Below, in pieces: positions 3,826 through 43,461 of a stretch of 64,000 nt of DNA. Source of the DNA: a virus. The stretch's first letter is position 1; every line of letters begins with the position of its first letter. Position numbers and translations under genes: made by a program. The stretch lies in IMG/VR virus record IMGVR_UViG_3300032087_002755; one strand, given 5' to 3'. Under the pieces are notes generated by a model. That model did no database searches. It saw only the letters and a list, made by a program, of their open reading frames with translations, and was not told the origin of the DNA.

Positions 3826-3843
3826 TGTCTATTATTTATGCCT

Positions 3844-4740
3844 TTAGAATGTTTTTATAACTTTAAATGTCTCACATTCCCATTCTTTTTCTTCAAAAGG
3901 TATGTGCATGATTTGTTCTAAATCAGTATCATCAAATAACTTGTTGTCTTTCATGTGTATTTCTAAAGACTTATTACTATCTTTAAAGAGGTCTAAGTAG
4001 TCTACTGTAGTTTCACCGATTAGTGTTGGTAATTTGAAGTTAAATATTTCTGCTTGAATACGATATGCAGTTAGATAGTATTGTGGTCTATCCTCGTCAA
4101 CGTGCCATTCTAGTAAAGGTTTATTTGAAAAGGTATTCGGACTTCCTTCTGCAAATCCCCTTGTGTCTATCCATTGTTGTTTATCAACACTGAAGATATC
4201 TTTCCATGTATTGAAATCTATAATATTGTTTTCAGTAAAAAACTCTTCTTGACAATCCCAAAAAACAATACCTTGTTTTTCCATTTTACCCAAGTACATT
4301 GCATATTGTCTACAAGAGCCTGGGTGAAACCATACACCAAGAGAGTCAGTCTTCATACTACCTTGTGGATATGAATACCAACCTTCTTCTTTCCAAGTGT
4401 CTAAGAGATATCTACATTTACTTGCATGAAAGAATGCATTGTCTTCAGTATTTTCTAATCGTTTGTTATAGAGTTTTGCTGGTTGAATGTGACGTTCTAA
4501 TGTTTCAAGATAGAATTCATTGTTTTGTATACCGTCTTCTTTTAACCATGGGTCACGAATGTTGTATTTCATTATGGCCTTACAATATCGTAATGCAGAC
4601 ATTTTAAGGTCTCGAGTAAGAACCTCGTGTTTTAAAATATCTCCAAACAATAATAGTTTGGGTCTAGACGTGTCTTTAATCTCATTAAAGAGTGTTTCAA
4701 CTTTGTCATAGTCTGACTGTTCATTTAAAAATATTAACAT
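3844..4740 (-). CDS. Hypothetical protein with ParB/Srx-like segment; paralogous to N-terminus of 38955 ORF
   Basis: HASKCRYLLDTWKEEGWYSYPQG...WFHPGSCR; overlaps kdsB stop. Confidence 0.65.
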   Translation of the reverse strand: MLIFLNEQSDYDKVETLFNEIKDTSRPKLLLFGDILKHEVLTRDLKMSALRYCKAIMKYNIRDPWLKEDGIQNNEFYLETLERHIQPAKLYNKRLENTEDNAFFHASKCRYLLDTWKEEGWYSYPQGSMKTDSLGVWFHPGSCRQYAMYLGKMEKQGIVFWDCQEEFFTENNIIDFNTWKDIFSVDKQQWIDTRGFAEGSPNTFSNKPLLEWHVDEDRPQYYLTAYRIQAEIFNFKLPTLIGETTVDYLDLFKDSNKSLEIHMKDNKLFDDTDLEQIMHIPFEEKEWECETFKVIKTF

Positions 4741-22200: not shown

Positions 22201-25200
22201 AAGTAGACTTGGGTGGATTAGAACCTGATGGAACTTTTGAGTTATCAGACTCAGTCGATTTCAGACCATTAGTTGGTCAGATATTAGGGTCTACAACTTT
22301 TGCAACAAACACTTCACAAGACCCAACAGATTCCACAAGTATTGTTGACTTATCAGATACAAGTGGAGAAGGTGCAAGATATGCTCCATTCGGATATGAG
22401 AGTGGACGTTCTTTCTTAGGAACAAGAACAAATATTGCAACAACCAACGCAAGTGCAGTTGATACCCCAGTAAGTGGTTCAAGTGTTGTGGGTGATATAT
22501 CATTCTATGTTGGTAGAATAGATAAAGTATTTTTACATAAGTCAGGAATGTTCCAAGTATCAACTGGAAATCCTTCCTTATCACCAACTAAACCTAAAGC
22601 TATTGACGAATCAATCGAAATGTTTGAATTGTCAATACCGCCTTACACTAATAAGTTAAACCAAATCAGAGTAAGGTCACAAGACCATAGACGATATACT
22701 ATGAAAGATATCGGAAAGATTAATAACAGGGTCACTAACTTAGAAAGAATTACTTCACTATCATTACTTGAGAAAGATACTCAATCAAAACAGATTTTAG
22801 ATGCAGACGGATTCGATAGATATAAGTCAGGTTTCTTAGTAGATAACTTTAGAGGTCATAAGATTGGTGACGTAAATCACCCCGACTATAAGTGTTCTAT
22901 CGATACAAAAATGGGTATGTTAAGACCTCAGTCTTATCAACAGTTCTTTGATATTGGATTAAACTCAGGTGCATCTTCAAACTTTACAAAAACTGGTGAC
23001 TTAATAACATTACCATTTACAGAACTTGCATATGTAGACCAAAATAAAGCGTCTCGTTCAATCAATGTTAACCCATACCATGTATTTGCATTCGTAGGTA
23101 ATGTCAAGTTGACACCCGAAACAGATATATGGCAAGATACAGAACAACTACCCGAAGTTAGAATCAATAGAGAAGGAAACTTTGATGCAGTATTATCGGA
23201 CAACACAAATGCACTAGGAACAGTTTGGAACTCGTGGCAAACCACATGGGCAGGTGAACCAAGTGTAGTGTCTTCAGAAGTTCAAGCAACTTCTAATGGT
23301 TCATGGTCAGGAGACCCAGCACAAGGTGGTGAATGGGTTGCTGGTTTAGAGATAACAAGAGAAATTACAGAGACACCTGAGATTCAAACAAGAACAGGTG
23401 TAACAACAAGTGTCGTAGAAGACTTTGTAGAAACAAGAAACGATAGAATCGTGTCAGTATCAATTGTTCCTTTCATGCGTGCAAGGACTATTGAGATAGA
23501 TGCAACCAACTTAAAGCCTGGTTCGAATCATTACTTCTTCTTTGACAACATAGACGTAAACAGATTCGTAAGACCTTACAGTGGAACTTATTCACAAGAC
23601 GGTGGAACAACAGTTACATCAAATTGTAAAACAGACGGAAACGGAAGATTACGTGCATACTTTGAATTACCGAATAATTCAATAGACAAGTTTGCAACAG
23701 GACAAAGAGAATTAAGAATAACATCTTCTGCAAACAATTTAAGTAATCCTGCTTCAAATGGTAGTGCAGTATATCAAGCACAAGGACTATTACAAGCATC
23801 ACAAACAGAAATCGTATCTACAAGAAATGGTAGAGTGGTTATGGAAAGATTACAAGGTTCAAGGTCAATGTCTAGAAGGGGTGAGAATTTAAACTCTGCA
23901 CCAACAGACACAACTGCACCACCACTACCTCAAGCACCTGCTGAAATTGTGAGGGTAAATGACCCACCACAAGATATGACACCACCAGTGATACCCGACC
24001 CAACTCCAGCGGTTCCCGACCCTGTAGCAGTAATACCAGTCGAATCACCACTAGTGTTTACCCCACCAGTAGTATCGTGGCCTGAACCACCTATTGAGGT
24101 TCCAATAATCATTGACGATATGAGAGATAGATTTGTTGATAGAATTGGAAGAAGTTCAAGATTAGATAGAGGTTGGGGAGACCCACTTGCACAATCATTC
24201 TTATGTGAAGCTGACGGAGGTATGTTCTTATCTTCAGTAGACGTGTTCTTTGAAACTAAAGATACTTCAATGCCTGTTTCAGTAGAAGTTAGAACTATGG
24301 TAAACGGATATCCCGGCCAGACTGTTCTTCCTTTCTCTACTGTAACACATAATCCTTCTGCCGTCAATACGTCTGCAGATGGGTCAGTTGCAACAACATT
24401 TACTTTTGATTCCCCAGTATACGTAGAAGAAAACGTAGAGTATGCATTGGTTGTATACTCAAACTCAAATGAATACAACATGTTCATTTCAAGAATGGGT
24501 GAGAAAGACCTTGCAACAGGACAAACAATCGCAGGTCAACCATATGCTGGTTCACTATTCTTATCTCAGAATGCTTCCACATGGACTGCAGAACAAACTG
24601 ATGATATGAAAATCAAAATCAAAACATGTAGATTTGATACTTCAAAAATTTCAAACTTAAAATTTGAGAATGATGCATTACCTTCAACTAAACTACAAAA
24701 CAATCCAATAGAAACTTTTGTTGGTCAAAACTATGTTAAAGTATACAACTACTTACATGGAATGTATGATTCAGTAGGAAATAAAGATAATGTAGTCATG
24801 TCAGGTTTAACAGGAGATAAGACAGGTTCAATATTAACCTTGGGTAGTAATTCAGTTAATGCAACACCTACAGACGGAACATATAATAATTTAGCAATTA
24901 GTTCAGGTTCTACTAGTGGAACAGGTGCAACACTTAGTGTCGTAGTTGCAAGTGGTGCTGTTACTAGTTGTCTAATTAGCAACCCAGGCGGTGGTTATCT
25001 AGATACAGAAACCTTAGTCATAAACAATTTCGATGCAAATGGAACAACCCTATCAGTAGAGATTGGTACGGTTGGTGAAACATTAGGTTCAATTCCAGTT
25101 GCAGCTTTAAATACAACGTTTACACAAATCAGTAATAGAGGAATTGATTCATATACAGTGATACCCGATTTATCTTCATTTAATTTTGTGTCAGGATACA

Positions 25201-26009
25201 CTGCATTAGTATCAACAGTTAGTGGTGGAAGTAATGCACTATCAACTAGAAACTATTACTTTGATGCAATTCATACAATGATTCCTTCTATTGCAGTTAA
25301 GAATACACAAATTCTTGCAAGTATTCAAGGGACTGGAATGAGTTCACCCGAAGGTGTAATCAGTGGAACTGCATACACTAAGAGTACAACAAGTACATTT
25401 ATCACATTGAATGATAATGCATTCTTTGATGCACCAAGTATTGTTGCATCAACAATCAATGAACAAAATGAAATGTCTAGTACAAAATCATTTAGTGTTA
25501 ACTTACAACTTGCATCATTTAACCAAAACATTTCTCCAGTTATAGACGTGGGAACAATTGGTTGTATAGGTATTGCAAACAGATTAAACAACATAGATAG
25601 TAGTGCAGATGTCCCTACAGGAACCACATATATCCCTTCTACTGAACCCGAAGGGGATTCTAATGCAATGGTATATGTAACACGTAAAGTGAACCTTAAA
25701 ACACCTGCTACAAGTCTTAAAGTTATTGGAGATTTCTTCAGACCGCCAACAACAGATATCAAAGTCATGTATAAGATAATTAAAAATGACGAAGATACAC
25801 CATTAGATGATATTGGATTCCAATTCTTCAATACTAATGGAAGTCCCGATGTCTCAGTTGAGAATGACGGAAGAAACTTTAAAGAATACGAATTCACTGC
25901 AAACGACTTGCCTGAATTCAGTGCATTTGCTGTGAAAATAGTTGGACAAGGAACAAATACATCAGTAGTACCATTGATTACTGCACTTAGATGTATGGCA
26001 CTTGCATAA
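19293..26009 (+). CDS. Large virion structural protein (VrlC/DUF4815-like)
   Basis: N.SPYYDDY, VLFR..RPLQARELTQ.Q, GADR, GKAYVKGYE, RYTMKDIG, GF.VDNF, DPLAQSF, GSLF.SQNASTW. Confidence 0.85.
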   Translation: MAEKTDLNISPYYDDYSQDKNFHKVLFRASRPLQARELTQSQSILQNQIERFGNHIFEEGSIVTGAQTDVDMELYFVKVKSSNPNVSGDSSVETYRKSFHGKIIQGKTTGVVGKVVTSTAETTDDKTTLFVRYQSQGTDTSNSFTFSAGEELQEVTVDQNGAITSVGSNNNEFTVDSLTVDSNPTGRASIANISEGVLFLRGFFVKVPAQELILEKYSGAPSYRVGLTITEKLISSAEDNSLLDNSQGTTNENAAGADRLKFDVVLSKYALTTTTDTDFVELVRVNKGLIELKVDKPIYNEIEHTMARRTFDANGDFVVRQFVPNLKEHLDTSINGGVYTKSNGGDESKFVMQVSPGKAYVKGYEIDKIGTTTVPLNKARSVVSLDNANTPIRLGNKLRVTSVHSLPEFGNDVGNTALDPFQVANLVDYTPSAGAAVTGNPIGLCRVRNVDEHTTGVYNLYLFDIKMFTKITLTSISSSSEFSVGDKITEDTTGATGIVSVVDATNNILMLHDVVGTFTVGNGLSSKGLTSTTKSAGAITGVRTYNIDRVRGVIQESNDSNNERFTASVVLDSVFNLTGTVIFGSTTTITGFGTKFTTELKEGDVIHNPTSGQNLIISAVTSDILATVTVASSGEYQGGCSRLRATLYDQNQTANIFAWPRNWVKTHTGESIQIRRQFTVALTNTGTFTIDTGSNGTFGAVNKDNFTIACIQGAGGTLSAGDLVDPDTLTNSVSPSGSGQQITFSGINANNSGATVKVSYTVTITDPVNRTKTLRSGRMLKVGTSSATNTVFYGTAYDNKEITLGVPDVYKVRGIYEGVSGDAVPPSGVITTTTGTFVVNEEIVGQTSDARANIVTLGSNPAVSWFYYTNDKVFTNTESIIGQTSGAVGTIASVTAGSPNIKNRYFFDNGQRDGYYDLSKLVLKPGEPTPNNKILVIFDYFQSSGGGDYFDVNSYNSIPYSEIPVYSPNKVDLGGLEPDGTFELSDSVDFRPLVGQILGSTTFATNTSQDPTDSTSIVDLSDTSGEGARYAPFGYESGRSFLGTRTNIATTNASAVDTPVSGSSVVGDISFYVGRIDKVFLHKSGMFQVSTGNPSLSPTKPKAIDESIEMFELSIPPYTNKLNQIRVRSQDHRRYTMKDIGKINNRVTNLERITSLSLLEKDTQSKQILDADGFDRYKSGFLVDNFRGHKIGDVNHPDYKCSIDTKMGMLRPQSYQQFFDIGLNSGASSNFTKTGDLITLPFTELAYVDQNKASRSINVNPYHVFAFVGNVKLTPETDIWQDTEQLPEVRINREGNFDAVLSDNTNALGTVWNSWQTTWAGEPSVVSSEVQATSNGSWSGDPAQGGEWVAGLEITREITETPEIQTRTGVTTSVVEDFVETRNDRIVSVSIVPFMRARTIEIDATNLKPGSNHYFFFDNIDVNRFVRPYSGTYSQDGGTTVTSNCKTDGNGRLRAYFELPNNSIDKFATGQRELRITSSANNLSNPASNGSAVYQAQGLLQASQTEIVSTRNGRVVMERLQGSRSMSRRGENLNSAPTDTTAPPLPQAPAEIVRVNDPPQDMTPPVIPDPTPAVPDPVAVIPVESPLVFTPPVVSWPEPPIEVPIIIDDMRDRFVDRIGRSSRLDRGWGDPLAQSFLCEADGGMFLSSVDVFFETKDTSMPVSVEVRTMVNGYPGQTVLPFSTVTHNPSAVNTSADGSVATTFTFDSPVYVEENVEYALVVYSNSNEYNMFISRMGEKDLATGQTIAGQPYAGSLFLSQNASTWTAEQTDDMKIKIKTCRFDTSKISNLKFENDALPSTKLQNNPIETFVGQNYVKVYNYLHGMYDSVGNKDNVVMSGLTGDKTGSILTLGSNSVNATPTDGTYNNLAISSGSTSGTGATLSVVVASGAVTSCLISNPGGGYLDTETLVINNFDANGTTLSVEIGTVGETLGSIPVAALNTTFTQISNRGIDSYTVIPDLSSFNFVSGYTALVSTVSGGSNALSTRNYYFDAIHTMIPSIAVKNTQILASIQGTGMSSPEGVISGTAYTKSTTSTFITLNDNAFFDAPSIVASTINEQNEMSSTKSFSVNLQLASFNQNISPVIDVGTIGCIGIANRLNNIDSSADVPTGTTYIPSTEPEGDSNAMVYVTRKVNLKTPATSLKVIGDFFRPPTTDIKVMYKIIKNDEDTPLDDIGFQFFNTNGSPDVSVENDGRNFKEYEFTANDLPEFSAFAVKIVGQGTNTSVVPLITALRCMALA

Positions 26010-26219: not shown

Positions 26220-27446
26220 ATGGCAAAAACAGTAGACCAATTTTCAACGATAGAAAATTTCAGAACCAAGTATAATGAACTTGCCGTTGACGTTGGTGAG
26301 TTATCAGGTTTAAGAACTGAATCAACTTCAAATGTAGTTGATGCACTTAACAGCCTTGAAGATAAAGCATTCTTCTTTCAAGAGTTTAAGTATAGTGCAA
26401 CGAGTGGTCAAACTGTATTCTCGGGTAATGATTCTGCTGGTAACTCTTTAGTATTCAGAAGTGGAAGAATCCAAGTATTTAAAAATGCAACTCATTTACT
26501 TTTAGGAACAGATTATACAATCGGTGGTGTAAACGGAAACAAACATACAGAAATTACACTTAACGTAGGTGCATCAGTTAGTGATGTTATCACTGTTTAT
26601 GCATATACAGGTTCATACTTAGGAAGTGCAATTGGAACTGGTGGTGGAACAGACGGTCAGTTTACTGAAACCGCTGCAAACACTATTTACAACAAAAATA
26701 CAAATGGTGTAATATTAAATGGTTCTTCAACTGGAAGAACAACTACACTTTCTACAAGTGCAAAAATAGAATTTGATTCTGCTGGAACAGGTATCTATTC
26801 ACAAGAAGATATTACACTTGCAGCTGGTAAGAATTTTGTTGGAAATCTAACTGGAGACGTTACTGGTGATTTAACTGGAAATGTCACTGGAAACCTCACT
26901 GGTAATGTCACTGGAAATACTTCAGGTAGTGCTGGAACAGTCACAAGTATATCTACACATAGTGCAAGTGCATTATCAGACATTAATTATACCACAACAC
27001 CTTCTAACGGTCAAATCCTTACATGGGATAATGCAAATCAGTATTGGGAACCAGCAGATAATCAATCTCTTTCTTCATTAAGTGGTGATACAGACGACCT
27101 TACAGAAGGAACAACAAATCTGTTTTCAACTACAGAAAGAATTCAAGATGCAGCTGCACAAATGATTACAAGTGCCGCACATAGTAACATATCAGTATCA
27201 TATGATGACGGATTGGGTACACTTACATTTACTGCTGGTGCAACATATGCTGATTCAGACGCAAGAGCTGCCGTGTCAGGTGGAAACGGACTTGCATATA
27301 ATAGTTCAACAGGTGTCTTTAGTGCAAACACTTCAAATGGTATCGAAATAAATAGTGATAGTATAGAATTAGATTATGAAATAGTCAATTCTGCACCCGC
27401 TAGTGCTGGTTCTACATCAACTGGTCACTTGTGGTTTGTTATATAA
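26220..27446 (+). CDS. Fibre protein 1 (N-terminal anchor, GNLTG repeats, C-terminal SAP...GHLW motif)
   Basis: F..FR.K.NEL N-terminus, ATSGQTVF domain, (G[ND][LV]T)n repeats. Confidence 0.7.
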   Translation: MAKTVDQFSTIENFRTKYNELAVDVGELSGLRTESTSNVVDALNSLEDKAFFFQEFKYSATSGQTVFSGNDSAGNSLVFRSGRIQVFKNATHLLLGTDYTIGGVNGNKHTEITLNVGASVSDVITVYAYTGSYLGSAIGTGGGTDGQFTETAANTIYNKNTNGVILNGSSTGRTTTLSTSAKIEFDSAGTGIYSQEDITLAAGKNFVGNLTGDVTGDLTGNVTGNLTGNVTGNTSGSAGTVTSISTHSASALSDINYTTTPSNGQILTWDNANQYWEPADNQSLSSLSGDTDDLTEGTTNLFSTTERIQDAAAQMITSAAHSNISVSYDDGLGTLTFTAGATYADSDARAAVSGGNGLAYNSSTGVFSANTSNGIEINSDSIELDYEIVNSAPASAGSTSTGHLWFVI

Positions 27447-27455
27447 TGAGATGAA

Positions 27456-28931
27456 ATGTCAGACGAAATATACATTAATATAGGGTCAACGATACAACAA
27501 CCGTATCAAGGTCAAACACCTGCTTCTGCTCAGTCTAATGAAACGAAACAGATAGTAAAACGAACTCCTGCGAGTTCTCAGACCTCATATAGAAGTCCGA
27601 GTCAAACACCTTCAACTTATAGGTCGCCAGTTGCTGGACAACAACCTTTAACTAATGTAAACAAACAAACTCCATTTACATATCAAGCACAAAGTCAGTC
27701 ACCTTTTACATATCAGGTGACTTATCAACACCCAGCAATTTATTCATATAGACAACCAAGTACGACACAAAGTCCTTATATTGCTAATGGACAAACTAAT
27801 CAAGCAAATGTAAGTAAACAAAGTCCATTTACAACACCTATTTCAAATGTAAGTAAACAAAGTCCATTTACATACCAATACAGGTCTCCATTTCCTTACT
27901 CGTATCAGCAACCTGCTAGACAACCTGTGGATGCTAGAAATCCATTCACGTATCAGAATGTCGGCCCAGTTTCTTATCAACAGGTTGGGTTTGCACGTTC
28001 ACCATTTATCTATTGGTATCAAATACAACAAGCAAAATTTGCTGACCCCGAAGAAATAGATTTTTATCAAGGGCCTCAGGGTGACGGTTATGACGTTACT
28101 GGAAGTAAACAATGGTTTACAGAAGCTAGAACTCCAGTGATTGCACAAGGGTATTTACAACCCGCTAGAACACCAGTAGCAGGTGGTGCCGCGACTGGTT
28201 TCTATCAGCTCCCATATATCTATCTCGGTGAGAATGTTAGATTAAATATACCGTATCCATATATTGCACCAGCTACACAACAACCTTATACAATATATCG
28301 TTCCTCGAATCCTGTAAATGCACAACAACCATTTACGTTTCAGAGTCCGTTTACAACACCTATTGCAACTGCACAAGGTCAAGAACCTAATATTAGAAAT
28401 GCACGACAACCATTAATCTATCAATATCAGCAACCTGTAAGACAACCAGTAATCTATCAACATAGACAACCGTTTACTTATCAACATAGACAGCCTCTTA
28501 ATAATCAAACACCGATTGCAAATGTAAGTTCACAAACAACTGCTCAAAAAACTGTTAATGCACAAGAATCAAATCCATACATTGCAAACGCTAGACAACC
28601 TATAATTTATCAGACTAGGTCACCATTCACATATAGAAACCCAGTGAATGCACAAACAAGTACACAAAATGTTGCAAGACAACCTAACATTTATCAGACA
28701 CCTTACCAAGTAAATTATCAACATAGGTCACCATACATATATCAGACACCATATACAACAACTAGAAGTATCGGCCCAGTTGCCAAAGTGAAGGGAGTTT
28801 ATTTGAATGACGGTGGAACTGTAAGAAAGGTTCAAGAGATTTATACAAATGAAAACTCTACACCCGAGAAAATACACCAAACAGTCCCCGCTGCAAGATT
28901 CTCTAAAAATCCTTCAAACACTCAAGTATAA
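27456..28931 (+). CDS. Pro-punctuated Q/Y/T/R-rich repeat protein; predicted self-complementary giant beta-hairpin (fibre-tip appendage)
   Basis: Units FTYRNP, YIANARQP, VNAQ.P etc.; N-arm and C-arm unit lengths mirror each other. Confidence 0.75.
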   Translation: MSDEIYINIGSTIQQPYQGQTPASAQSNETKQIVKRTPASSQTSYRSPSQTPSTYRSPVAGQQPLTNVNKQTPFTYQAQSQSPFTYQVTYQHPAIYSYRQPSTTQSPYIANGQTNQANVSKQSPFTTPISNVSKQSPFTYQYRSPFPYSYQQPARQPVDARNPFTYQNVGPVSYQQVGFARSPFIYWYQIQQAKFADPEEIDFYQGPQGDGYDVTGSKQWFTEARTPVIAQGYLQPARTPVAGGAATGFYQLPYIYLGENVRLNIPYPYIAPATQQPYTIYRSSNPVNAQQPFTFQSPFTTPIATAQGQEPNIRNARQPLIYQYQQPVRQPVIYQHRQPFTYQHRQPLNNQTPIANVSSQTTAQKTVNAQESNPYIANARQPIIYQTRSPFTYRNPVNAQTSTQNVARQPNIYQTPYQVNYQHRSPYIYQTPYTTTRSIGPVAKVKGVYLNDGGTVRKVQEIYTNENSTPEKIHQTVPAARFSKNPSNTQV

Positions 28932-32930: not shown

Positions 32931-35405
32931 ATGGCAACTAATTCGAAATTCAGTGCTGATTTAGGTATACAAACCGATGCAGATTTACAAGTAGACGGAA
33001 ACGTCACTGTATCAGGCAACCTAACAGTCAACGGAACCCAAACAACAGTTAATTCCACTACAACTTCAGTGGAAGATTCAATGTTGGAGCTTGCAAATGC
33101 AAACTTATCTTCAGACACTTTAGATATTGGTATTTACGGAAACTATGATGACGGATTGGGTGACGGAGTATCAGAGTATACTGGTTTCTTTAGAGATGCA
33201 TCAGACTCAACTTGGAAATTATTTGACGGATTAGAAGCAGAACCTACAACTACAGTCAATACTAGTGGGACAGGTTATACACTTGCAGACTTACAGGTGG
33301 GTGACTTAACTGCAACTACTTTGACTGCAACCAACGCCCTTACAGGGTCTTCTATCACCTATCCTACTTCAGACGGAACAAACGGACAAGTTTTAAAAAC
33401 AAATGGAAGTGGTGTTTTATCATTCGGTGATATCCCAGCAGGATATACTGATTCAGACGCTAGAAGTGCAATAAGTGTTAGTGGAAATCTTGCATATGAT
33501 AGTTCAACTGGTGTCATTTCGTATACTGAACCAACCATGTATGCAGACTCGGACGCTAGAAGTGCAATAAGTGTTAGTGGAAATCTTGCATATAATAGTT
33601 CAACGGGTGTTATATCTTACTCAGAACCTACAATGTATGCAGACTCAGACGCTAGAAGTGCAATAAGTGCTGGAACTGGAATATCATATGACAGTTCAAC
33701 TGGAGTAATAACAAATACAGTTTCAAATACTGATACAACATATAGTGCTGGAACTGGATTAACTTTAACAGGAACAACATTCAGTAATAATATAACTCAA
33801 TATACTGATTCAGATGTTGGAACATATCTTTCTTCAAACGGATATGCAACACAATCTACTATAGTTGCAGCGATTACCGATTCAGCACCAGCAACATTAG
33901 ATACTCTAAATGAACTTGCAGCTGCACTAGGTGATGATGCAAACTTTAGTACAACAGTAACAAATAGTATTGCACTTAAAGCTCCATTAGCAAGTCCTGT
34001 ATTTTCGGGTACTGTAGACATGGGTACTTTTGGAAATAGAACAAGAGCTTTTGAAGCATACGGAAGCAATGTTTTATTTGATGGTGGTAGTGATAAAATA
34101 GATTTAATCATTGGTGATGGTTCATCAGCTTATATGTCTATTCAGACAACTGATACTGCTAGTGCCATGAACATTCGTGATTACTCAGGAAATGCAGATT
34201 TGGTTACGATTGAAAGAGCCACAGGCAATGTCGGTGTAGGCACAAATGCTCCTGACGATTTGCTTCATGTTTTTGCAGGAGATTCTACAGCTACACCACA
34301 TAGTATCTCAGCATTCAATATTGAAAGTGCTTCAGATGTTGCAATGAATTTCCTAACTCCAAATACATCTCAAGCACAAATAAGATTTGCAGACCCACAA
34401 GACGATGGAAAGGGCATTATTGGTTATGACCATAGTAGTGATTATATGTTCTTCTCAACCAATGGGCCTGAGAGATTGCGTCTTACAAGTAGTGGTGACA
34501 TGCATCTTGGGGCATCTGATTCGGATGTGTTCTTCTATCTAGGTTCAAATGGTGGATTAACTGGTGGTAATTCATCTCATAATATGAGAGCATCAGGAAA
34601 TCAATTAATGTTCAACGCAGGTGGTGCTTCAAGTTCTTTTGTATATGAAGTAAATGGTTCACAAAAAATGAACCTTGCATCTGATGGTAAACTTAATGTT
34701 ATACCTTCATCAGCAACAGATAATTATGGAATGACAATAATTACAGGAAATAGTGCTGATACTGGAATAAAGATAGGTAGAAGTGGTGCAAATAATGCTA
34801 TGTTTGGTTTAGCAGTTGTTTCAAATGGAACCAATAGTATCGGTAGATTACAGTTTGACGGAGATGGTGATGTAGCTTTTGGTGATGCAGCTAATATAGA
34901 ATTGAGAGATGGTAATCTTGTAAGAATACAGTCTGCATTTTCAAATGATACATATGCAACTAACAGAGCTGTGTATGCAGAAGACCAAGGTGAACTTGGA
35001 TACAATGCATCTGTAAGAGCATCAAAAACAAATATTACAGATGTCGATGATGTTAGTTGGTTATATAATCTAAATGCAAAGACATTCAATAAACGCAAAA
35101 AAATTCAAGGTGAAAAACAATCAGATGGAACATATTCTTACTCCTATAGTGATACTGAACATAGTGGTATAACGGAATATGGTTTTATTGCAGAGGATTT
35201 AGAAGCATTAGCACCTGAACTTTGTTTCTATGGATATACAAGAGATGTTGATGCAGACGGAAACGAGTTAGATACCTTTACAAAAGGTGAATTACAAGGT
35301 ATTCATTACGAATCTATGGTTGCACCTATGTTAAAACTCATACAAAATCAGAAAGACGAAATAGATGCACTAGAAGTCCGTATTGCAACACTAGAATCTG
35401 AATAA
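32931..35405 (+). CDS. Tail fibre with C-terminal intramolecular chaperone (peptidase S74-like)
   Basis: SAPATLDTLNELAAALGDDANF, GNVGVGT.AP...LHV, S.R..K.NI, YGFIAEDL...PEL, terminal coiled coil. Confidence 0.82.
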   Translation: MATNSKFSADLGIQTDADLQVDGNVTVSGNLTVNGTQTTVNSTTTSVEDSMLELANANLSSDTLDIGIYGNYDDGLGDGVSEYTGFFRDASDSTWKLFDGLEAEPTTTVNTSGTGYTLADLQVGDLTATTLTATNALTGSSITYPTSDGTNGQVLKTNGSGVLSFGDIPAGYTDSDARSAISVSGNLAYDSSTGVISYTEPTMYADSDARSAISVSGNLAYNSSTGVISYSEPTMYADSDARSAISAGTGISYDSSTGVITNTVSNTDTTYSAGTGLTLTGTTFSNNITQYTDSDVGTYLSSNGYATQSTIVAAITDSAPATLDTLNELAAALGDDANFSTTVTNSIALKAPLASPVFSGTVDMGTFGNRTRAFEAYGSNVLFDGGSDKIDLIIGDGSSAYMSIQTTDTASAMNIRDYSGNADLVTIERATGNVGVGTNAPDDLLHVFAGDSTATPHSISAFNIESASDVAMNFLTPNTSQAQIRFADPQDDGKGIIGYDHSSDYMFFSTNGPERLRLTSSGDMHLGASDSDVFFYLGSNGGLTGGNSSHNMRASGNQLMFNAGGASSSFVYEVNGSQKMNLASDGKLNVIPSSATDNYGMTIITGNSADTGIKIGRSGANNAMFGLAVVSNGTNSIGRLQFDGDGDVAFGDAANIELRDGNLVRIQSAFSNDTYATNRAVYAEDQGELGYNASVRASKTNITDVDDVSWLYNLNAKTFNKRKKIQGEKQSDGTYSYSYSDTEHSGITEYGFIAEDLEALAPELCFYGYTRDVDADGNELDTFTKGELQGIHYESMVAPMLKLIQNQKDEIDALEVRIATLESE
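33444..33710 (+). repeat. ~3 tandem 96-nt coding repeats (Y.DSDARSAIS.SGNLAY.SSTGVISY.EPTM)
   Basis: gacgctagaagtgcaataagtg recurs with 96-nt period. Confidence 0.85.
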
Positions 35406-35505: not shown

Positions 35506-35766
35506 ATGGCAACACAAAATACATTCGTAATTGAGTATGGTTTAACAGTAGGTACTACTGAAATCATATCAAGTGCTGGTAAACTTGCTGCATCAGCATT
35601 ATCTTTATTAGATACAGATAATCTTGCAGAAGGGTCAGTGAATCAATACTTTTCAAACTCTCTCGCAAGGGGTGCTATATCACTTGCGTCAGGTGAAACA
35701 AATTTAAGTTATAATTCATCAAATGGTGAATTATCATTACCACAATTAGATGGAGGAACATTCTAA
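35506..35766 (+). CDS. Short fibre linker ending DGGTF
   Basis: F.IE.GL.VG N-terminus, TDNLAEGS.N.YF, C-terminal LDGGTF. Confidence 0.7.
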   Translation: MATQNTFVIEYGLTVGTTEIISSAGKLAASALSLLDTDNLAEGSVNQYFSNSLARGAISLASGETNLSYNSSNGELSLPQLDGGTF

Positions 35767-37367
35767 TGACAGCTAAGAATTTTAATATCAAAAATGGTTT
35801 ATCCATTGGTGGTGTAGAGGTAATCGACTCCAGTGGTAATATTGCCGCAGGTGGAGTAGGTGCAGCGGTTCAAGAAGCAATCGCAGACAAAATCGGTTCG
35901 ATAATTCAAGGGTCAGGTTCAACAACCGTGACTTATGATGACGATGCTGATACAATTACAATCTCATCAACAGGAAAAACTGAAGAAGAAATACAAGATA
36001 TCATTGGTGCTGCTTTAGCAACTAATGGTACACATACTGGTTTATCAGTCGCATATGACGATGCTGGTGATGGTGCAATAGACATAACTGTAAGTCTTTC
36101 TTCATTCGATACAGATGCATTATCAGAAGGAAGTTCAAACCTTTATTATACAGATACAAGAGCAGACGCAAGAATTTCAAATGCAATACTAGATTCAGAT
36201 ACATTTACTGGTGCGTTATCTACTAACGTTCCTTCTGCTGAATCAACAAAAGCATATGTTGATGCACAAACAACAGACGAAACTGCAGAGGGGTCAACAA
36301 ACCTCTATTTTACAGATGCACGTGTGATGACTTCACTAGCAACTGTAGATGCACATATTGTACCAACTACAGACGTAACATACGACTTAGGTTCTTCTTC
36401 AAAACAATGGAGAGATATCTATGTCGGGCCAGGTTCATTATATGTTAATGGACAACAAGTGGTTTCAGACAACTCAGGAACAATTACTGTTTCTGCTGAT
36501 TCAGACCAAAATGTTAGTGTTCAAACAAGTGGTTCGGGTGATATCGAATTAGATGCAACTGGAACAGGTAATGTCCAAATTAAATCACCTATGCAGATAC
36601 AAGCTTCAAATGCTATATCTTCATCAGACGGAAATGCAATTCAATTCTCAAACTCAATTGACGTAGATGCAATCGAGTCAAGAAGTACAGACACTAACTT
36701 AGTGTTGACAGGAAATGGAACAGGTAATGTTACAATTAATGACTCTTTAGCAGTCACAGGTGACCTAACAGTTTCAGGAACTACAACAACTGTAAACTCA
36801 GAAACAATTTCACTTGCAGATAACATTATTGCATTAAACAGTAATTTCACTTCAGGTTCACCAACAGAAGACACTGGTATCAGTGTAACTCGTGGTGGTT
36901 CTGCTGCTAAGACACTTCTTTGGGACGAAACAAATGACAAATGGACAGTAGGTTCAGAAACTTTTGTTGCAGCCACTTTTGAAGGTGCATTAACAGGTAA
37001 TGTTACAGGAACAGTTTCAGGAAATGCTGGTTCAGCAACAATCTTAGAGTCAGCAAGAACAATTAGTTTAGGTGGTGACCTTTCGGGTTCTGCTTCATTC
37101 AATGGTTCTGCAGATATTTCAATCTCAGCAACAATTGCAGACGATTCTCATAATCACGTAATATCAAATGTAGACGGATTACAAACTGCATTAGATACAA
37201 AATATGAGAGTGGAGATAACGTATCATTAGGAACTATAGCTTCAGGTGCAATTACAATCACCAATGCAACGAATGCTGGTGGAACTGCAAGAAATATGTA
37301 CCAATCAACATCAGCTCCTGCTTCAGGTGATGGTGCAGTTGGTGATATGTGGATTCTTTACTCCTAA
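35766..37367 (+). CDS. Fibre protein 2 (C-terminal SAP...GDMW motif)
   Basis: NFNIKNGL.IG, TD.L.EGS.NLY, YDLGSSSKQWRDIY, ARTISLGGDLSGSASFNGSADI, HNH.IS.V.GLQ.ALD. Confidence 0.8.
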   Translation: MTAKNFNIKNGLSIGGVEVIDSSGNIAAGGVGAAVQEAIADKIGSIIQGSGSTTVTYDDDADTITISSTGKTEEEIQDIIGAALATNGTHTGLSVAYDDAGDGAIDITVSLSSFDTDALSEGSSNLYYTDTRADARISNAILDSDTFTGALSTNVPSAESTKAYVDAQTTDETAEGSTNLYFTDARVMTSLATVDAHIVPTTDVTYDLGSSSKQWRDIYVGPGSLYVNGQQVVSDNSGTITVSADSDQNVSVQTSGSGDIELDATGTGNVQIKSPMQIQASNAISSSDGNAIQFSNSIDVDAIESRSTDTNLVLTGNGTGNVTINDSLAVTGDLTVSGTTTTVNSETISLADNIIALNSNFTSGSPTEDTGISVTRGGSAAKTLLWDETNDKWTVGSETFVAATFEGALTGNVTGTVSGNAGSATILESARTISLGGDLSGSASFNGSADISISATIADDSHNHVISNVDGLQTALDTKYESGDNVSLGTIASGAITITNATNAGGTARNMYQSTSAPASGDGAVGDMWILYS

Positions 37368-37386: not shown

Positions 37387-37394
37387 CATAAATA
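37387..37394 (+). promoter_or_regulatory. Late promoter variant CATAAATA driving the A/B repeat-gene pair
   Basis: One mismatch to consensus; same variant at 32895, 43470, 6490 and on minus strand at 3832-3839. Confidence 0.6.
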
Positions 37395-37420: not shown

Positions 37421-38074
37421 ATGGCTACAGGATTCTTTCAACAACCTAATTCGGGGTCAGCACAAACGGCGGTTAATGCACAAACACCGTTCACTTATAA
37501 TGCTAGATATCCAGCAAGTGCTCAGCAACCGTATACGTTCCAATCACCATTTACATATAGTGCAAGATATCCTGCGAATGCTCAACAACCGTTTACGTTC
37601 CAGTCACCATTTACATATAGGGTGCCTTATATTGCTAATGCAAGACAACCAGTAATTTATAGAAACCCATTTACATATAGGGTTCCATATATTGCAAATG
37701 CTAGACAACCAGTAATCTATCAACATAGGTCTCCTTTCACTTATAGAAATCCTGTATCTGCACAAGAACCTAATATCAGAAATGCACAAACACCTTTCAC
37801 TTACAGAAACCCAGTGAATGGTCAAGAACCTAACATTAGAAACGCACAAACACCTTTCACTTATAGAAACCCAGTGAATGGTCAAGAACCTAATATTAGA
37901 AATGCACAAACACCGTTTACGTATCAGAATAGACAACCATTTACGTATCAGAACAGACAACCGTTCACATATCAGAATAGACAACCTTCTACATATGCGA
38001 CACAAGGTAGAACGCCAGAAGCGAGATGGGACGGAGTAGTAACACAGCAGTGGCCTGCTCAACCAATAACATAG
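37421..38074 (+). CDS. Pro-punctuated repeat protein, strand A of predicted antiparallel heterodimer
   Basis: 27 units of 6/8/10 aa, residues 10-199; 60-nt and 24-nt DNA tandem repeats. Confidence 0.8.
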   Translation: MATGFFQQPNSGSAQTAVNAQTPFTYNARYPASAQQPYTFQSPFTYSARYPANAQQPFTFQSPFTYRVPYIANARQPVIYRNPFTYRVPYIANARQPVIYQHRSPFTYRNPVSAQEPNIRNAQTPFTYRNPVNGQEPNIRNAQTPFTYRNPVNGQEPNIRNAQTPFTYQNRQPFTYQNRQPFTYQNRQPSTYATQGRTPEARWDGVVTQQWPAQPIT

Positions 38075-38084
38075 GAATAAGATA

Positions 38085-38894
38085 ATGGCATCAGGAAATC
38101 AAAACGTCAAAACACCTACAGGTTGGAATGCAACACGTGGTGCATGGGTAAAAACACCAGCTGGTTGGAATGCAGTAGACCAAATATATGTAAAAACACC
38201 TTCAGGGTGGAATAATGCATCAGGACAAGAATTAACACAAATTCCATATCCTTACATTGCAAATGCTCAGAATCCTTATATTGCAGATGCACAACAACCG
38301 TATATTGCAAATGCACAACAACCATATATTGCAGATGCAAGACAACCGTCAACCTATCAACATAGGTCACCATTTACTTATCAAAACCCAAGTAATGCTA
38401 GACAACCTTCTACATATAGTCATAGGTCACCATTTACTTATCAAAACCCAAGTAATGCTAGACAACCGTCAACCTATCAACATAGGTCACCGTTCACTTA
38501 CAGAAATCCTGTAAATGCACAAGAACCTAATATAAGAAATAGACAGTCACCGTTCACTTATAGTGCTAGATATCCTGCGAATGCTCAGAGTCCTAGTAAT
38601 AAACAGTCACCATTTACATATAGTGCAAGGTATCCTGCGAATATTAGACAACCTAACAGTGCAAGGAACCCGTTCACATACAGAGTTCCATATATTGCTA
38701 ATGCTAGACAACCTAACAGTGCAAGGAATCCGTTTACATATCGTGTTCCATATATTGCTAATGCTAGACAACCTAACATTGCAAGGTCACCGTCAATCTA
38801 TAACTATAGATTCCCAATGGTGTACTTCTATCAAACTGGTGGAGGAAATTTCTTACCACAGGGAGATGGTACGAAGAACGTGGGAGCTCTATAA
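38085..38894 (+). CDS. Pro-punctuated repeat protein, strand B, with N-terminal (VKTPxGWN)x3 anchor
   Basis: 27 units, residues 55-244, in reverse length order to 37421. Confidence 0.8.
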   Translation: MASGNQNVKTPTGWNATRGAWVKTPAGWNAVDQIYVKTPSGWNNASGQELTQIPYPYIANAQNPYIADAQQPYIANAQQPYIADARQPSTYQHRSPFTYQNPSNARQPSTYSHRSPFTYQNPSNARQPSTYQHRSPFTYRNPVNAQEPNIRNRQSPFTYSARYPANAQSPSNKQSPFTYSARYPANIRQPNSARNPFTYRVPYIANARQPNSARNPFTYRVPYIANARQPNIARSPSIYNYRFPMVYFYQTGGGNFLPQGDGTKNVGAL

Positions 38895-38910: not shown

Positions 38911-38936
38911 AAAAGGGACTTTCGAGTCCCTTTTTT
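38911..38936 (+). terminator. Rho-independent terminator after the A/B repeat genes
   Basis: AAAAGGGACT-TTCG-AGTCCCTTTTTT. Confidence 0.9.
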
Positions 38937-38954
38937 GTATCCTAAATACATTGT

Positions 38955-40529
38955 ATGAAAAACTTGAAATACTATACAGAAGTTTTAGAAGAACTCAAAC
39001 CCGAAGATTGGGACTTTAAAACACTAACTACACAAGAATTATATCAAAAAGAAGATTATCACTTCGGTGCTTTTAATGATATACGAACCATAGACAAAGA
39101 TACTGAAGTATATAAATCCTTTAAATATGTCTTTGAGAACATTATACCACCCACAAAAATCATTAAGTGGGGAGATATTTTAGAATTACGTAAGAATAAA
39201 ACATTCATAGGATTCCAAGGAACTTCATTGGAAGCCATGCATTATCACAAATATTTACCACACGTATATACCGACAAAGAGAGAACTGGTAAACAGATAG
39301 GAAATATGGATTGTAAGACACCTGATGGTGAATATGCAGATATTACGGAATTCACACCTCTATTAACACAAGAACAGAAAGACCAAGACCATATAGGTAT
39401 ATCATTAAACTCTATGTATTATCATAGTGCAAAAGCACATTGGTTGGTTCAAAGTATACAAGAAGAAGGATTACGACACCCTATACAAGGAGTGACATTT
39501 AAAGTTGACGATAGATTTGGTTTTAGAATCCACCCAGGCTCTATTAGGTCTAAAGTGTTTGAAGAATTAGAAGACCCAAATTTCGAAATATTTGCAACAG
39601 ATATACACGATATCTTTGATTCAAAACCTTTGACTTGTGACGAGGTGTTAGAATATTGGTGTAAGAAACTAGAAGAGAGAAAAGATACTATCGGTAATTA
39701 TAACATGTCAGTAACACTATGTAATGGAAACATAGAATACAACCATGCATTAATGGATTTAGACTTTCGAAAAGAAGTTTGGGAACATAGTAAAAAAGCA
39801 ACACTTCAATCCAAAGGTAAACCTCTCAACATTTACATTGGGTATGATAGTAGCCATGGAGACTTACATGAAGTTAGTAAAGATTCAATTCTCAAAACTC
39901 TGAGTAACCAACACCTTGGACACTTAATTAAAGAAACAGAGTGGAAACCTGAGATTAAGTTTCTTGACATTTCCAAACTTCCCGATTATAATAGAGAGTA
40001 TGCAAATCAATCTACTGAATTTACTTATAGTAGATTCTTAATTCCACATTTAGAAAATTATGAAGGTTATAGTATTTTTATGGATAATGATTTCATATGG
40101 AGAAAATCTATACTACCTTTATTCTATTATTTGAACTTAGATGATGCAGTTGCATGTATTCAATACAAACAAATAGAACACGATGAAACCAAGTTTAATG
40201 GTGAGGTTAATATAGACTATCCGAAAAAACTATGGTCAAGTCTTATGGTATTCAATAATGGACATGAAGACTGTAAGAAATTAACACCCGAAGTAGTAAA
40301 CACTTGGACTGGAAAACAATTACACCAGTTTGAATGGACTGATAAGATTAGTAAAATACCCGAAAAGTATGTCTTTACTGAGGGGTATGATGACCCTGAT
40401 GAGAAATGGGATTATCATGGTATCCATTATACAAGGGGAGGCCCATGGGTAAAAGACATGGATTATTCCAACATAAATAACTTAGATGACTGGTTAACTG
40501 CAAAAACCAACTTGCAAAAAAACCAATAA
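38955..40529 (+). CDS. Fusion: ParB/Srx-like N-terminal region + GT-A glycosyltransferase (GT8-like)
   Basis: IYIGYD, STEFTYSRFLIP, FMDNDF (DxD), YPKKLWSSLMVFN, HYTRGGPW; N-term SIQEEGLRHPI...IHPGSIR. Confidence 0.82.
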   Translation: MKNLKYYTEVLEELKPEDWDFKTLTTQELYQKEDYHFGAFNDIRTIDKDTEVYKSFKYVFENIIPPTKIIKWGDILELRKNKTFIGFQGTSLEAMHYHKYLPHVYTDKERTGKQIGNMDCKTPDGEYADITEFTPLLTQEQKDQDHIGISLNSMYYHSAKAHWLVQSIQEEGLRHPIQGVTFKVDDRFGFRIHPGSIRSKVFEELEDPNFEIFATDIHDIFDSKPLTCDEVLEYWCKKLEERKDTIGNYNMSVTLCNGNIEYNHALMDLDFRKEVWEHSKKATLQSKGKPLNIYIGYDSSHGDLHEVSKDSILKTLSNQHLGHLIKETEWKPEIKFLDISKLPDYNREYANQSTEFTYSRFLIPHLENYEGYSIFMDNDFIWRKSILPLFYYLNLDDAVACIQYKQIEHDETKFNGEVNIDYPKKLWSSLMVFNNGHEDCKKLTPEVVNTWTGKQLHQFEWTDKISKIPEKYVFTEGYDDPDEKWDYHGIHYTRGGPWVKDMDYSNINNLDDWLTAKTNLQKNQ

Positions 40530-41121: not shown

Positions 41122-41868
41122 ATGGAACTCATTTACCATGATGAGTCCTTCAAGTTACAAGACATAGGATTCCCACTTAAAGACATTCACATTGTTGATA
41201 ATTGGTTACCTGTACAAATACACCATTGGATTGATAATACATTTTCTAGAAATCAAATATGGTCTAAACAAAACCAAGTGAATGCTGGTAGTCCTACTGG
41301 ATTACCTCATCATCAGTTTTGGGGTGTTGGACTCTTTGACGCTGGACGGAGTGGAAAGAAGTATGAATATCCTAATTTTGCAAAAGAGATGCACGAAGAT
41401 TCTTGGTCTGAGTTATATGATTGTAGAGCAGTCGCAAGATATTTAGATAGAAAATTACAAACAGACTTTGGTTTTAAGTGGGAAAGATTTCAATACATGG
41501 GACTGAATTCACAAACACAAGGTTTACACGGAACAACACATGCAGATTGTGAAGATGAAGATGAGTGGAATCTATCGTTTTTATATTATACCAATAAGTT
41601 TTGGGAGAAACATTGGGGAGGCCCTTTGAGAATATATGACGAAATGCAACAGGGTTTACATGGTCGTGCAAATCATATAAAGAATCACCAAATTGCAGAA
41701 ATAGAATTTAAACCAAATAGATTGTTAATATTTGACGGAAGAATACCACATGGTGCAGATGCACCTACACCCGAGGCACGTTATATGGACAGAAAGTCCA
41801 TAGTTATTAGAGGCGATGAAATTAGACTGGTAGAAGATGAGGAGTTTTTTAAACAATGCCCACGATAG
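41122..41868 (+). CDS. 2OG-Fe(II) oxygenase (prolyl-4-hydroxylase-like)
   Basis: HxD (HAD), LYY.N..W...WGG.L, FKPNRL.IFDG.IPH, distal R.S. Confidence 0.85.
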   Translation: MELIYHDESFKLQDIGFPLKDIHIVDNWLPVQIHHWIDNTFSRNQIWSKQNQVNAGSPTGLPHHQFWGVGLFDAGRSGKKYEYPNFAKEMHEDSWSELYDCRAVARYLDRKLQTDFGFKWERFQYMGLNSQTQGLHGTTHADCEDEDEWNLSFLYYTNKFWEKHWGGPLRIYDEMQQGLHGRANHIKNHQIAEIEFKPNRLLIFDGRIPHGADAPTPEARYMDRKSIVIRGDEIRLVEDEEFFKQCPR

Positions 41869-42752
41869 AATTTAACACATATAACGAACAAACACTTAAA
41901 GATGTAAAACCCGTTCTTGCAAAATCTGTTTCACCCGATTGGTGGAAACAGATGAAATTTAGTGAATATAATCGTGGAAATCTAATAACAACTATTCGTG
42001 CATGTCCAGCTATGGACGATTGGTTAAAAAGTGGTTGGTATTTACTTGCAAACAGAGATATGATTGTTAAGAATGGTAGTATTACAGATTCAGATGACGA
42101 TGATGAAATTTATATGTCAACACATGAATTTGGTGAAGGTTATGAACACCCTTCACCAGCACACCCTAGTGGTCAAATGGGATATGCATTTCAATATATT
42201 CCTGATGACGAAGCACCAATAAGGGGTGCATTTAAGTTTAGAAATCCATGGAATATTACAACACCGCCTGGATATTCTTGTTTATATCTAGACCCATTTC
42301 TATTTCAAAATAAATTCTTTGCAACATGGCAAGGTATTATTGATACAGACAAGTTTAATGCAAACTATGATAATGCACAAGTAATATTCTATCCTCGTGT
42401 TGGACATTCATTCGTTATACCAAAAGGAACACCTCTTTGTCAAATTATACCATATAAAAGAGAAGAATGGCAAGCCACATACCTTACGTATAAGTCTAAT
42501 GATTGGACAAAGAATAGAAGTCATATTACTAGTAACCGTGAAAATAAAACTATGGACGAGTTTTCAAGAGACCCAGCAACTTCTGATGAATATAGAAAAA
42601 ATGAAATGACAGTTGGTGGTTATCGTGGTGGTAATTTACATTCTAATAAAGGTAAACTATATAAACAAGAGAATCCACCACCCGAGTGTCCTTATCATGT
42701 AAGTGAGGATTCACCCGAAATACAATTGGAGTTAAACTTAAAAGATGATTAG
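41856..42752 (+). CDS. Conserved hypothetical protein often found beside phage oxygenases (DUF6065-like)
   Basis: TIRACP...D, KF.NPW.I.TPPGYS.L, GIIDTD, IPKGTPL.QIIP..RE.W. Confidence 0.65.
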   Translation: MPTIEFNTYNEQTLKDVKPVLAKSVSPDWWKQMKFSEYNRGNLITTIRACPAMDDWLKSGWYLLANRDMIVKNGSITDSDDDDEIYMSTHEFGEGYEHPSPAHPSGQMGYAFQYIPDDEAPIRGAFKFRNPWNITTPPGYSCLYLDPFLFQNKFFATWQGIIDTDKFNANYDNAQVIFYPRVGHSFVIPKGTPLCQIIPYKREEWQATYLTYKSNDWTKNRSHITSNRENKTMDEFSRDPATSDEYRKNEMTVGGYRGGNLHSNKGKLYKQENPPPECPYHVSEDSPEIQLELNLKDD

Positions 42753-43461
42753 ATTATTATTCCCATATGTCTGTATTGAAAGAGACCTTTTAAAAGAAGG
42801 TGCAATCAGTGAAGACTATATTAAAATTCTCAAAGACGCTGTGGACGGAATGAGAAAGAAAGACACAGTTGGTAGAAGTATTTCTAATCAATACACTGGT
42901 TGGCAGTCAAATGATGGTTGTGAAAGTCACCCAGCATTTCAAAAAATAATGAGGATAATTAAAAACACTTTTGATACTGAATTATTAGATTGGAATGGAC
43001 TTGATAGAGGACAGGTTCAACTAACAATGGGTAATTCATGGGCAAACATAAACGACAATACAGCATGGAATGCTCCACACTTACACAATGGTTGTTGGTA
43101 TAGTGGTGTGTTCTATATCCATGCAGATGGAGACGAAGGAGACTTTATAGCAGTTGATAAAGACCCAAAAGTGGTATCAGACTTTCCACATTCACCAAGA
43201 GAACAAGCAAATTTTAAAGTATCACCAACAACTGGTACATTGTTTCTATTTCCAAGTGGTTTGATGCATATGGTGGAACCCAATATGACTCAAAAAGATA
43301 GATATAGTATTTCCTTCAATATGAATGTCACCTACTTAACTGCTGGTCTACAAGCTAGATTAGGGAATCCTAAAGGATATCACCCCGATGAACTTACTTT
43401 TACTACAGACGAAGACGGGAAATTAGTTCATTTATTTCCACAATTAAACAGTAACGACTAA
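42745..43461 (+). CDS. Putative 2OG-Fe(II) oxygenase (TIGR02466-like)
   Basis: GWQS, SWANIN, N.PH.H, SGVFY, LFPS.L.H.V.PN, RYSISFN. Confidence 0.85.
   Translation: MIRLLFPYVCIERDLLKEGAISEDYIKILKDAVDGMRKKDTVGRSISNQYTGWQSNDGCESHPAFQKIMRIIKNTFDTELLDWNGLDRGQVQLTMGNSWANINDNTAWNAPHLHNGCWYSGVFYIHADGDEGDFIAVDKDPKVVSDFPHSPREQANFKVSPTTGTLFLFPSGLMHMVEPNMTQKDRYSISFNMNVTYLTAGLQARLGNPKGYHPDELTFTTDEDGKLVHLFPQLNSND

Follow-up and report, generated by a model that had tools for sequence, protein, structure and literature searches.

The stretch of viral DNA analysed here, IMG/VR record IMGVR_UViG_3300032087_002755 (64,000 nucleotides; the window), carries two adjacent genes, A and B, whose predicted proteins are largely built from short units that end in proline. 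Gene A lies at 37421..38074 on the + strand and encodes 217 amino acids (aa). Gene B follows on the same strand at 38085-38894, after a gap of 10 nucleotides (nt), and encodes 269 aa. Both are open reading frames (ORFs) that have a start codon and a Shine-Dalgarno-like sequence of their own, and a GGAG stands 10 nt ahead of the ATG of A. Protein A begins with a 9-aa N-terminal cap, continues with proline-punctuated repeats over residues 10-199 (37448-38017), and ends in a conserved tail, xARWDGVVxQQWPxxPIx (38018-38071, + strand); in the alignment with its relatives, M1, G4, and the R-W-D and W-P of the tail are invariant. Protein B opens with a head of 54 residues (38085..38246, + strand) composed of three 14-aa repeats of the VKTPxGWN type, which are coded by 42-nt direct DNA repeats and strongly conserved in the alignment. 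AlphaFold2 (AF2) places short strands at residues 21-44 of this head, with low confidence. Behind the head come a repeat arm of 190 aa (residues 55-244; 38247..38816, + strand), which is the unit-wise mirror and complement of residues 10-199 of A, and a C-terminal tip (38817..38894, + strand) made of MVYFYQTGGG and a 15-aa tail.

The mirror is best described in units, each a stretch ending in proline, with A read from C- to N-terminus and B from N- to C-terminus. Between residues 10 and 199, the unit lengths of A are 14 (taken as 8+6), 8, 6, 6, 8, 6, 6, 6, 8, 6, 6, 8, 8, 6, 6, 8, 6, 6, 8, 6, 6, 8, 8, 8, 8, and 10; between residues 55 and 244, those of B are 2+8 (taken as 10), 8, 8, 8, 8, 6, 6, 8, 6, 6, 8, 6, 6, 8, 8, 6, 6, 8, 6, 6, 6, 8, 6, 6, 8, 6, and 8. 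An earlier, sequence-only reading of this DNA had claimed that one series is the exact reverse of the other, and our recount agrees (27/27 units, 190 aa per arm). The two adjustments on which that count depends also hold up. Splitting the 14-mer of A is justified by the alignment, in which relatives keep the proline that A of the window has lost, and the YP of B joined to the next 8-mer acts family-wide as a 10-mer opposite the 10-mer of A. It had likewise been stated that the DNA is not an inverted repeat; we found 0 inverted pairs in the region, which contains only direct cassettes with a 60-nt period that are common to genes A and B. In a permutation test of unit order, 26/26 mirrored proline boundaries of A (anchor excluded) coincide with boundaries of B, whereas 200,000 shuffles of the A unit order gave 3.4 coincident boundaries on average and never more than 21. 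Chance as the source of the mirror in the window is excluded.

The mirror and the pairing code across relatives

A near-length protein search with B returned 272 relatives (protein clusters), and 0 of the 272 carry an informative name. A scan of IMG/VR yielded at least 249 stretches encoding relatives, from which 80 loci were kept; 5 further loci came from ENA contigs of ~150 kb, giving 85 loci in all. Genes were taken as A-type if they had the tail motif xxRWDG..QQWP and as B-type if they had a head with VKTPxGW. Adjoining A-type and B-type genes occur in 79 loci, which represent 55 non-identical pairs and 42 distinct proline patterns. The gene order is BA in 43 of these pairs and AB in 12, with the clade of the window having the order AB. 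For comparison of lengths, the A arm was measured from Met1 to the proline before the RWD tail and the B arm from the end of the head to the first run of glycines (G-run). So defined, the arms range from 171-541 aa in A and 170-613 aa in B, and they co-vary across the 55 pairs with r=0.976. The difference in length between the two arms is <=5 aa in 35/55 pairs.

The agreement extends from the lengths of the arms to the positions of their prolines. When the prolines of A are counted from the tail and those of B from the head, approximately 90-95% coincide at an offset of zero (63/68 in locus L070, 60/63 in L057, 40/41 in L085, and 26/27 in the window), whereas the best forward, unmirrored alignment reaches 40-60% only, and at arbitrary offsets. 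Over the 42 patterns, cognate pairs have a median F1 of 0.89 and non-cognate pairs one of 0.29; for 32/42 A, the best-matching B is the cognate one, and forward alignment gives an F1 of 0.007 to 0.26. Reversed A equals B over 22 to 59 consecutive units in very unlike architectures. The identical strings (40 units in L085, 59 in L057, and 29 in L037, for example) include 0808... runs, 668888 super-repeats, and 866 runs. Where a proline has been lost in one chain, the spacing is left intact, and the loss shows as a unit of 14, 16, or 18. The sequence-only reading had named homologous pairs with unmirrored unit patterns as a finding that would speak against it; it withstands this check, as 42 architectures of 171 to 541 aa keep the zero-offset mirror. 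Within the clade of the window (the window, L013, L007, L015, and L005), 8-mers and 6-6-8 blocks gained or lost in one gene have counterparts at the mirrored place in the other. Since the BA and AB orders follow the same rule and the DNA has no inverted repeat, the constraint acts on the proteins.

Facing positions, defined by setting proline opposite proline, also differ in kind. We classed a unit as aromatic if it has an aromatic residue at position 3 and as small if it has none there. By this definition, 1522/1604 facing units (95%) pair aromatic with small, versus 56% after a shift of the partner by one unit. The aromatic consensus sequences are FTYRNP and FTYQHRSP, and the small ones are VNAQ[QE]P and [YN]I[AR]NAQQP. 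The pairing rules proposed from the window (FTY[SN]ARYP with YIANARQP, FTYRVP with A[NS]xxxP, FTY[RQ]NP with V[NS][AG]QEP, and xxYxHRSP with NIRNxQxP) proved to be the commonest facing pairs family-wide. Finer preferences exist as well: His5 of aromatic 8-mers stands opposite Arg3 of small 8-mers with an odds ratio of 10.8 (261 distinct unit pairs), and FTYRVP faces A-initial 6-mers, while FTYRNP faces V- or S-initial 6-mers. We considered whether the code is a trivial outcome of shared reversed blocks and, given the slid control, dropped this idea because the facing blocks are complements, not copies.

Proposed antiparallel pairing and its alternatives

The explanation that we favour, and regard as likely on the sequence evidence, is that a T4-like marine myovirus builds one elongated structural element from two chains, A and B, which run antiparallel and in residue register over the full length of the repeat arms. 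An antiparallel beta-ribbon of A and B had been claimed from the window. The part of this claim that stands is in-register antiparallel co-assembly, which is well supported by covariation, given the matched indels and a mirror that stays unmoved over 42 architectures; direct contact, beta geometry, and attachment are what we infer beyond it. The stoichiometry may be 1:1 or 3:3, and an arm of 190 aa would span ~60 nm if the ribbon is extended and far less if it is coiled. In such an element, every proline of A would lie opposite a proline of B, and each aromatic unit (F-T-Y-...-P) opposite a small unit of the other chain, such as V-N-A-Q-E-P or [YN]-I-[AR]-N-A-Q-x-P. The chains would form a two-stranded ribbon with the prolines aligned on one side and Phe/Tyr set against Ala/Gly/Val on the other, possibly bundled further, for instance as three ribbons round a fibre axis. 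In its fuller form, which we judge on balance to be probable, the proposal describes a natural sequence-coded protein duplex. Two polypeptides would be zipped antiparallel over 170-540 residues under a unit-level code, with aromatic xTY units facing small units of equal length and proline facing proline. Such a duplex would change in length only by matched edits in two genes, and its tip would perhaps be closed covalently in lineages that have a Hint domain.

The two ends of the paired arms differ. The most conserved parts, the B head and the A tail, fall at the same end of the mirror alignment. Here, the triple-repeat head of B and the RWD...QQWP tail of A would meet and form the base, beside the conserved C-terminus of the fibre encoded upstream (35766..37367, + strand; 533 aa, with PHROG tail-fibre matches). 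That C-terminus, ...DGAVGD[LM]W[IV]LYS, is near-invariant, and the conserved synteny of the pair with this fibre is what speaks for the putative docking of B on it through its head. At the other end, the G-run of B starts within ~2 residues of Met1 of A, so placed that the C-terminal G-run of B and the N-terminus of A would meet as the tip, which in relatives would bear a self-cleaving Hint domain of the bacterial intein-like (BIL) kind or another small domain. The putative role of the whole would be that of a fibre or whisker.

The mirror between the two arms could also arise if A and B are not in contact. Each would then run along a third, aperiodic scaffold, such as the shaft of the upstream trimeric fibre, with opposite polarity, and the scaffold would set the spacing. 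This fibre always accompanies the pair and is longer where A and B are longer, tracking the length of A with r=0.81 and a slope of ~1 residue per residue (n=32), a trend that is a lead for side-by-side packing and is confounded by ancestry. However, the fibre correlation is much looser than that between A and B (0.81 vs 0.98) and is not unit-exact, and complementarity between aromatic and small units is predicted by direct contact, not by a shared scaffold. The same complementarity is also seen within one chain in single-chain relatives. These proteins, which have an MSDDIFIK-type start and a C-terminal beta-sandwich, have runs of small units with aromatic runs of equal size behind them; in the relative P0100, five s8 units adjoin five A8 units. 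Equal small and aromatic runs in one chain are what an intrachain hairpin would need. We consider the scaffold arrangement improbable.

Other evidence bears on the tip. After the G-run, relatives of B carry either a domain of ~165-190 aa that starts with Cys and ends in His-Asn, a short tail like that of the window, or other domains of 112-140 aa. The Cys-starting domain follows GGGG|C and matches PDB 2LWY (E 4.7e-8) and the gp41-1 intein, and Pfam intein and Hint matches to the C-terminal domain of B relatives fall below their cut-offs. The Hint fold with its N-terminal Cys and C-terminal His-Asn is present in relatives such as P0002/L001. The end of B in the window, GGGNFLPQGDGTKNVGAL, has no Cys and no Hint domain and thus represents a Hint-less allele. 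The sequence-only reading overlooked the Hint/BIL autoprocessing domain that ends most of the B family. Our own reading is that the Hint domain would be a self-cleaving tip domain, dispensable for the core design.

A role of the Hint domain in ligating B to A may be imagined, a role that is possible but unsupported. A thioester formed by B-Hint at GGGG|C would be resolved by the N-terminus of A, giving a covalently closed B-A hairpin, and Hint-less lineages such as that of the window would stay non-covalent. This would extend, rather than exclude, the favoured antiparallel pairing. It would account for the B relatives that have both Cys1 and the terminal His-Asn of an intein-like domain (the 2LWY and gp41-1 matches), for a G-run of B that ends within ~2 residues of Met1 of A in mirror register, and for the start of A only 13-50 nt after B-Hint in most loci. 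However, A has no Cys, Ser, or Thr at position 1 or 2 in many lineages (MA.., MP..), many lineages, including that of the window, have no Hint domain, and simple self-cleavage, as in the S74 chaperone of an 824-aa fibre, explains the domain equally well. We give such ligation a slim prospect.

That the mirror is a structurally meaningless by-product, either of mutation or recombination between paralogous repeat genes or of palindromic 8-6-6 patterns, is highly improbable: A and B do have direct 60-nt-period DNA cassettes in common, and 8-6-6 blocks do read alike both ways, but DNA exchange between direct repeats cannot reverse the order of units, non-cognate pairs from the same blocks match poorly (F1 0.29 vs 0.89) and forward alignment fails, irregular features are mirrored too (10-8 runs, 668888 super-repeats, single 4s, and lost prolines with kept spacing), and facing units are complementary, not identical.

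Several points weigh against the antiparallel pairing of A and B. Five to six pairs (L018, L036, L062, L069, L072) are mismatched in length by 20, 22, or 44 aa or by multiples of such steps. Between sister contigs of these pairs, one partner gene is identical and the other differs by 20, 22, 44, or 88 aa; the mismatches fall inside tandem super-repeats, and sister contigs with the matched form exist. Such pairs may reflect assembly collapse of tandem repeats or tolerated, one-sided intermediates of co-evolving indels. The pairs are also kin by descent, so counting them inflates the tally of independent events. Prolines at regular intervals are uncommon in beta-sheets and would fit only at non-hydrogen-bonded positions. 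With B alone, AF2 reached a predicted local distance difference test (pLDDT) score of 34.5; in P0100, the repeats scored ~28, and only the C-terminal beta-sandwich was modelled; with scores this low, the geometry of A and B is not established. Prediction of an A+B complex with alignments ended with a score of 0.00 and no model, which counts neither for nor against binding. Lastly, searches of GenBank phages found no cultured phage with an A/B pair, so we infer the presence of A and B in the virion from gene context only.

Proposed ribbon geometry and known systems

Spacings between successive prolines are even in 3927/3962 cases (99%). With such spacing, the arms most likely have a beta-type, two-residue period with the prolines on one side, and a beta-type ribbon is probably the geometry that the sequences encode. 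By our reasoning, facing prolines would be tolerated in an antiparallel ribbon if they lie at non-hydrogen-bonded positions. The odd positions (Phe1 and Tyr3 versus Ala, Gly, or Val) would make one apolar face needing burial, and a bundle of three ribbons or packing on the fibre shaft could bury it. A collagen-like or polyproline II (PPII) period was not found in the arms: Gly does not recur periodically, proline closes units of 6, 8, or 10 aa, and 8-aa units misfit a period of 3.

Searches of structure and sequence databases returned little for this family. The model of P0100 gave nothing at E<=0.001 in Foldseek against the PDB, and weak fimbrial-adhesin rows were not used; a search of the ESM Atlas gave uncharacterised viral clusters only. 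Sequence searches of the PDB with the A profile and with B produced 0 hits. Neither A nor B has a PHROG family or a Pfam fibre domain, and GenBank phage searches with the DNA of the locus, with B, and with the B head gave no relevant match. A Streptococcus phage match in GenBank fell under a glycerol kinase gene and was set aside as compositional. Cementoin (PF10511, the trappin transglutaminase-substrate repeats) matched residues 111-137 of A with 35.1 bits, above its cut-off of 27 (E 1e-8), and B had no Cementoin match in the same profile search. Cementoin repeats are GQDPVK-type hexapeptides that supply Gln and Lys for cross-linking. Because neither the matched stretch nor the rest of the A arm contains Lys, and because B is unmatched, we rejected A as a Cementoin and read the match as compositional (VxGQEP resembling VKGQDP).

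The window also holds a 491-aa single-chain paralogue at 27456-28931, after a fibre gene at 26220-27446. It has degenerate proline-punctuated units, an MSDEIYIN start, and a VKGVY...EIYTN end. It is one of a larger family in which C-terminal beta-sandwich domains occur (P0051, P0072, P0100) and whose more regular members show the adjoining small and aromatic runs described above. A self-mirror of its own prolines has no support: the gapless comparison gave 9 matches versus a null mean of 8, and the gapped comparison 20 versus 14.2 (standard deviation 2.5).

Among described structures, the needle of T4 gp37 resembles the proposed A/B element in being a thin distal fibre part of a T4-like phage, encoded in the fibre module, in which the chain runs to a receptor-binding tip and back, so that outgoing and returning segments are antiparallel. 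The iron sites of gp37 are His-x-His motifs, and no HxH motif was found in A or B. In gp37, domain D10 of the long-tail-fibre needle (D10-D11) is built from residues 811-881 and 1010-1026, and the protein is a single chain that forms a homotrimer, with seven iron sites holding it together (PMC6957217). In contrast, A and B are two gene products, punctuated by proline and complement-coded, whose arms vary from 171 to 541 aa across the family and which have no sequence similarity to any PDB chain. The stalk of streptococcal antigen I/II (A3VP1) measures 155 Å for one repeat pair, according to the statement in PMC3707005 that cites Larson et al. 2010. It resembles the proposed A/B element in being long and fibrillar and in associating two different repeat regions antiparallel; their repeat numbers match, and one of the two is rich in proline. 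However, it joins an alpha-helix to a PPII helix within one polypeptide, whereas A and B are two phage polypeptides whose arms both consist of proline-punctuated 6-, 8-, and 10-mers, with an even spacing that suggests a beta period.

Other comparisons concern parts of the system. The C-terminal domain of many B relatives resembles BIL/Hint domains (2LWY) in having a Cys after the G-run and a His-Asn end. Self-cleavage, or splicing without a nucleophile, is reported for A-type BILs. B of the window has no such domain, and in relatives the residue after His-Asn is F, I, L, G, or R, which is a non-nucleophile. Adhesins of the gp38 type (T2/S16), which cap a trimeric fibre, are small, separate products that adjoin a distal fibre gene, may attach at the C-terminal end of the fibre, and have unusual repeats without regular secondary structure in predictors. 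They differ in being a single protein with Gly-rich polyglycine II (PGII) motifs, and the Atlas structural similarity is insignificant (template-modelling score, TM, 0.28); we know of no mirror partner for gp38. The coiled-coil arms of SMC/Rad50 have antiparallel segments with co-varying lengths and interruptions. They share the co-varying lengths with A and B, as well as the antiparallel pairing that we propose for these, and differ in being alpha-helical, intramolecular, and non-viral. No pertinent report emerged from literature searches on phage fibres with Hint domains or proline repeats and on antiparallel heterodimeric fibres. We regard the A/B pair as a new kind of system; neither the gp37 needle nor the antigen I/II stalk is two-gene, proline-registered, and complement-coded.

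If the proposed pairing is true, the pair would be a clean natural example of indels in one gene compensated by indels in another. It would represent a structural principle undescribed for phage fibres, namely a heteromeric, antiparallel, and length-tunable filament whose register is set by a simple complement code, and it would account for a family of marine phage genes that is abundant and so far uncharacterised. The pairing rule yields predictions of the facing residues and of the paired deletions that should compensate. A design rule for long heterodimers of the beta type that resist aggregation may be drawn from it as well and, if it is correct, a possible programmable scaffold for heterodimerisation.

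Gene neighbourhood and transcription

The window represents a T4-like structural module, with a baseplate cap, gp5, gp6, gp7, and gp8-like genes upstream of the pair together with several fibres, and gp13, gp14, gp15, terminase, and sheath downstream. The pair therefore lies within the late structural (baseplate-fibre-neck) part of the genome. The gp14 of the window is only 44% identical to the gp14 of cultured cyanomyoviruses. By tblastn, the upstream fibre was found in 81/85 loci, and the conserved C-terminus of this fibre immediately precedes the pair wherever the sequence of the locus extends far enough. At 2891-4175 and 5001-6017 of L005, a pilon-polished long contig, the fibre gene is split (289 + 149 aa), and B, at 338 aa, has a shortened Hint domain without the terminal His-Asn; both are probably sequencing frameshifts.

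An ATAAATA motif resembling T4-type late promoters (37388..37394, + strand) stands 27 nt before the start codon of A, and none stands before B. The same motif occurs just upstream of other + strand structural genes (6491, 11129, 17758/17769, 26153, 32896, 35463, 43751, 48504, 51080, and 53756). The window contains 25 copies in total versus 24.4 expected by chance; as the count is not above chance, a promoter role is suggested by position. After B, a terminator-like hairpin is followed by a U-run (38912..38938, + strand; -13.6 kcal/mol, z=-3.65), which a simple consensus terminator scan did not list. A motif before A, none before B, and a hairpin after B fit a bicistronic transcript, and A and B look like genes of one such late message.

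Directly downstream, a gene at 38955..40529 (+ strand) encodes 524 aa with a glycosyltransferase-like C-terminal half (phrog_28018; tblastn matches to annotated nucleotide-sugar transferases). It follows the pair in 49/54 loci, and the remaining five loci end earlier. Two oxygenase genes lie further on: 41122-41868 encodes a 2-oxoglutarate-Fe(II) oxygenase of the Oxy_3 (prolyl-hydroxylase-type) family, and 42745-43461 encodes one of the Oxy_5 type. This neighbourhood suggests, as a lead, that the arms of A and B, rich in Pro, Thr, and Tyr, may be hydroxylated or glycosylated. Three genes upstream of the pair, the 824-aa fibre (32931-35405) carries a C-terminal Peptidase_S74 (endosialidase-chaperone) self-cleaving domain, at 22.3 bits against a cut-off of 22, which gives the module another kind of fibre end with autoprocessing. 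An ORF of 2238 aa (19293-26009) separates the gp8-like gene from the fibre genes.

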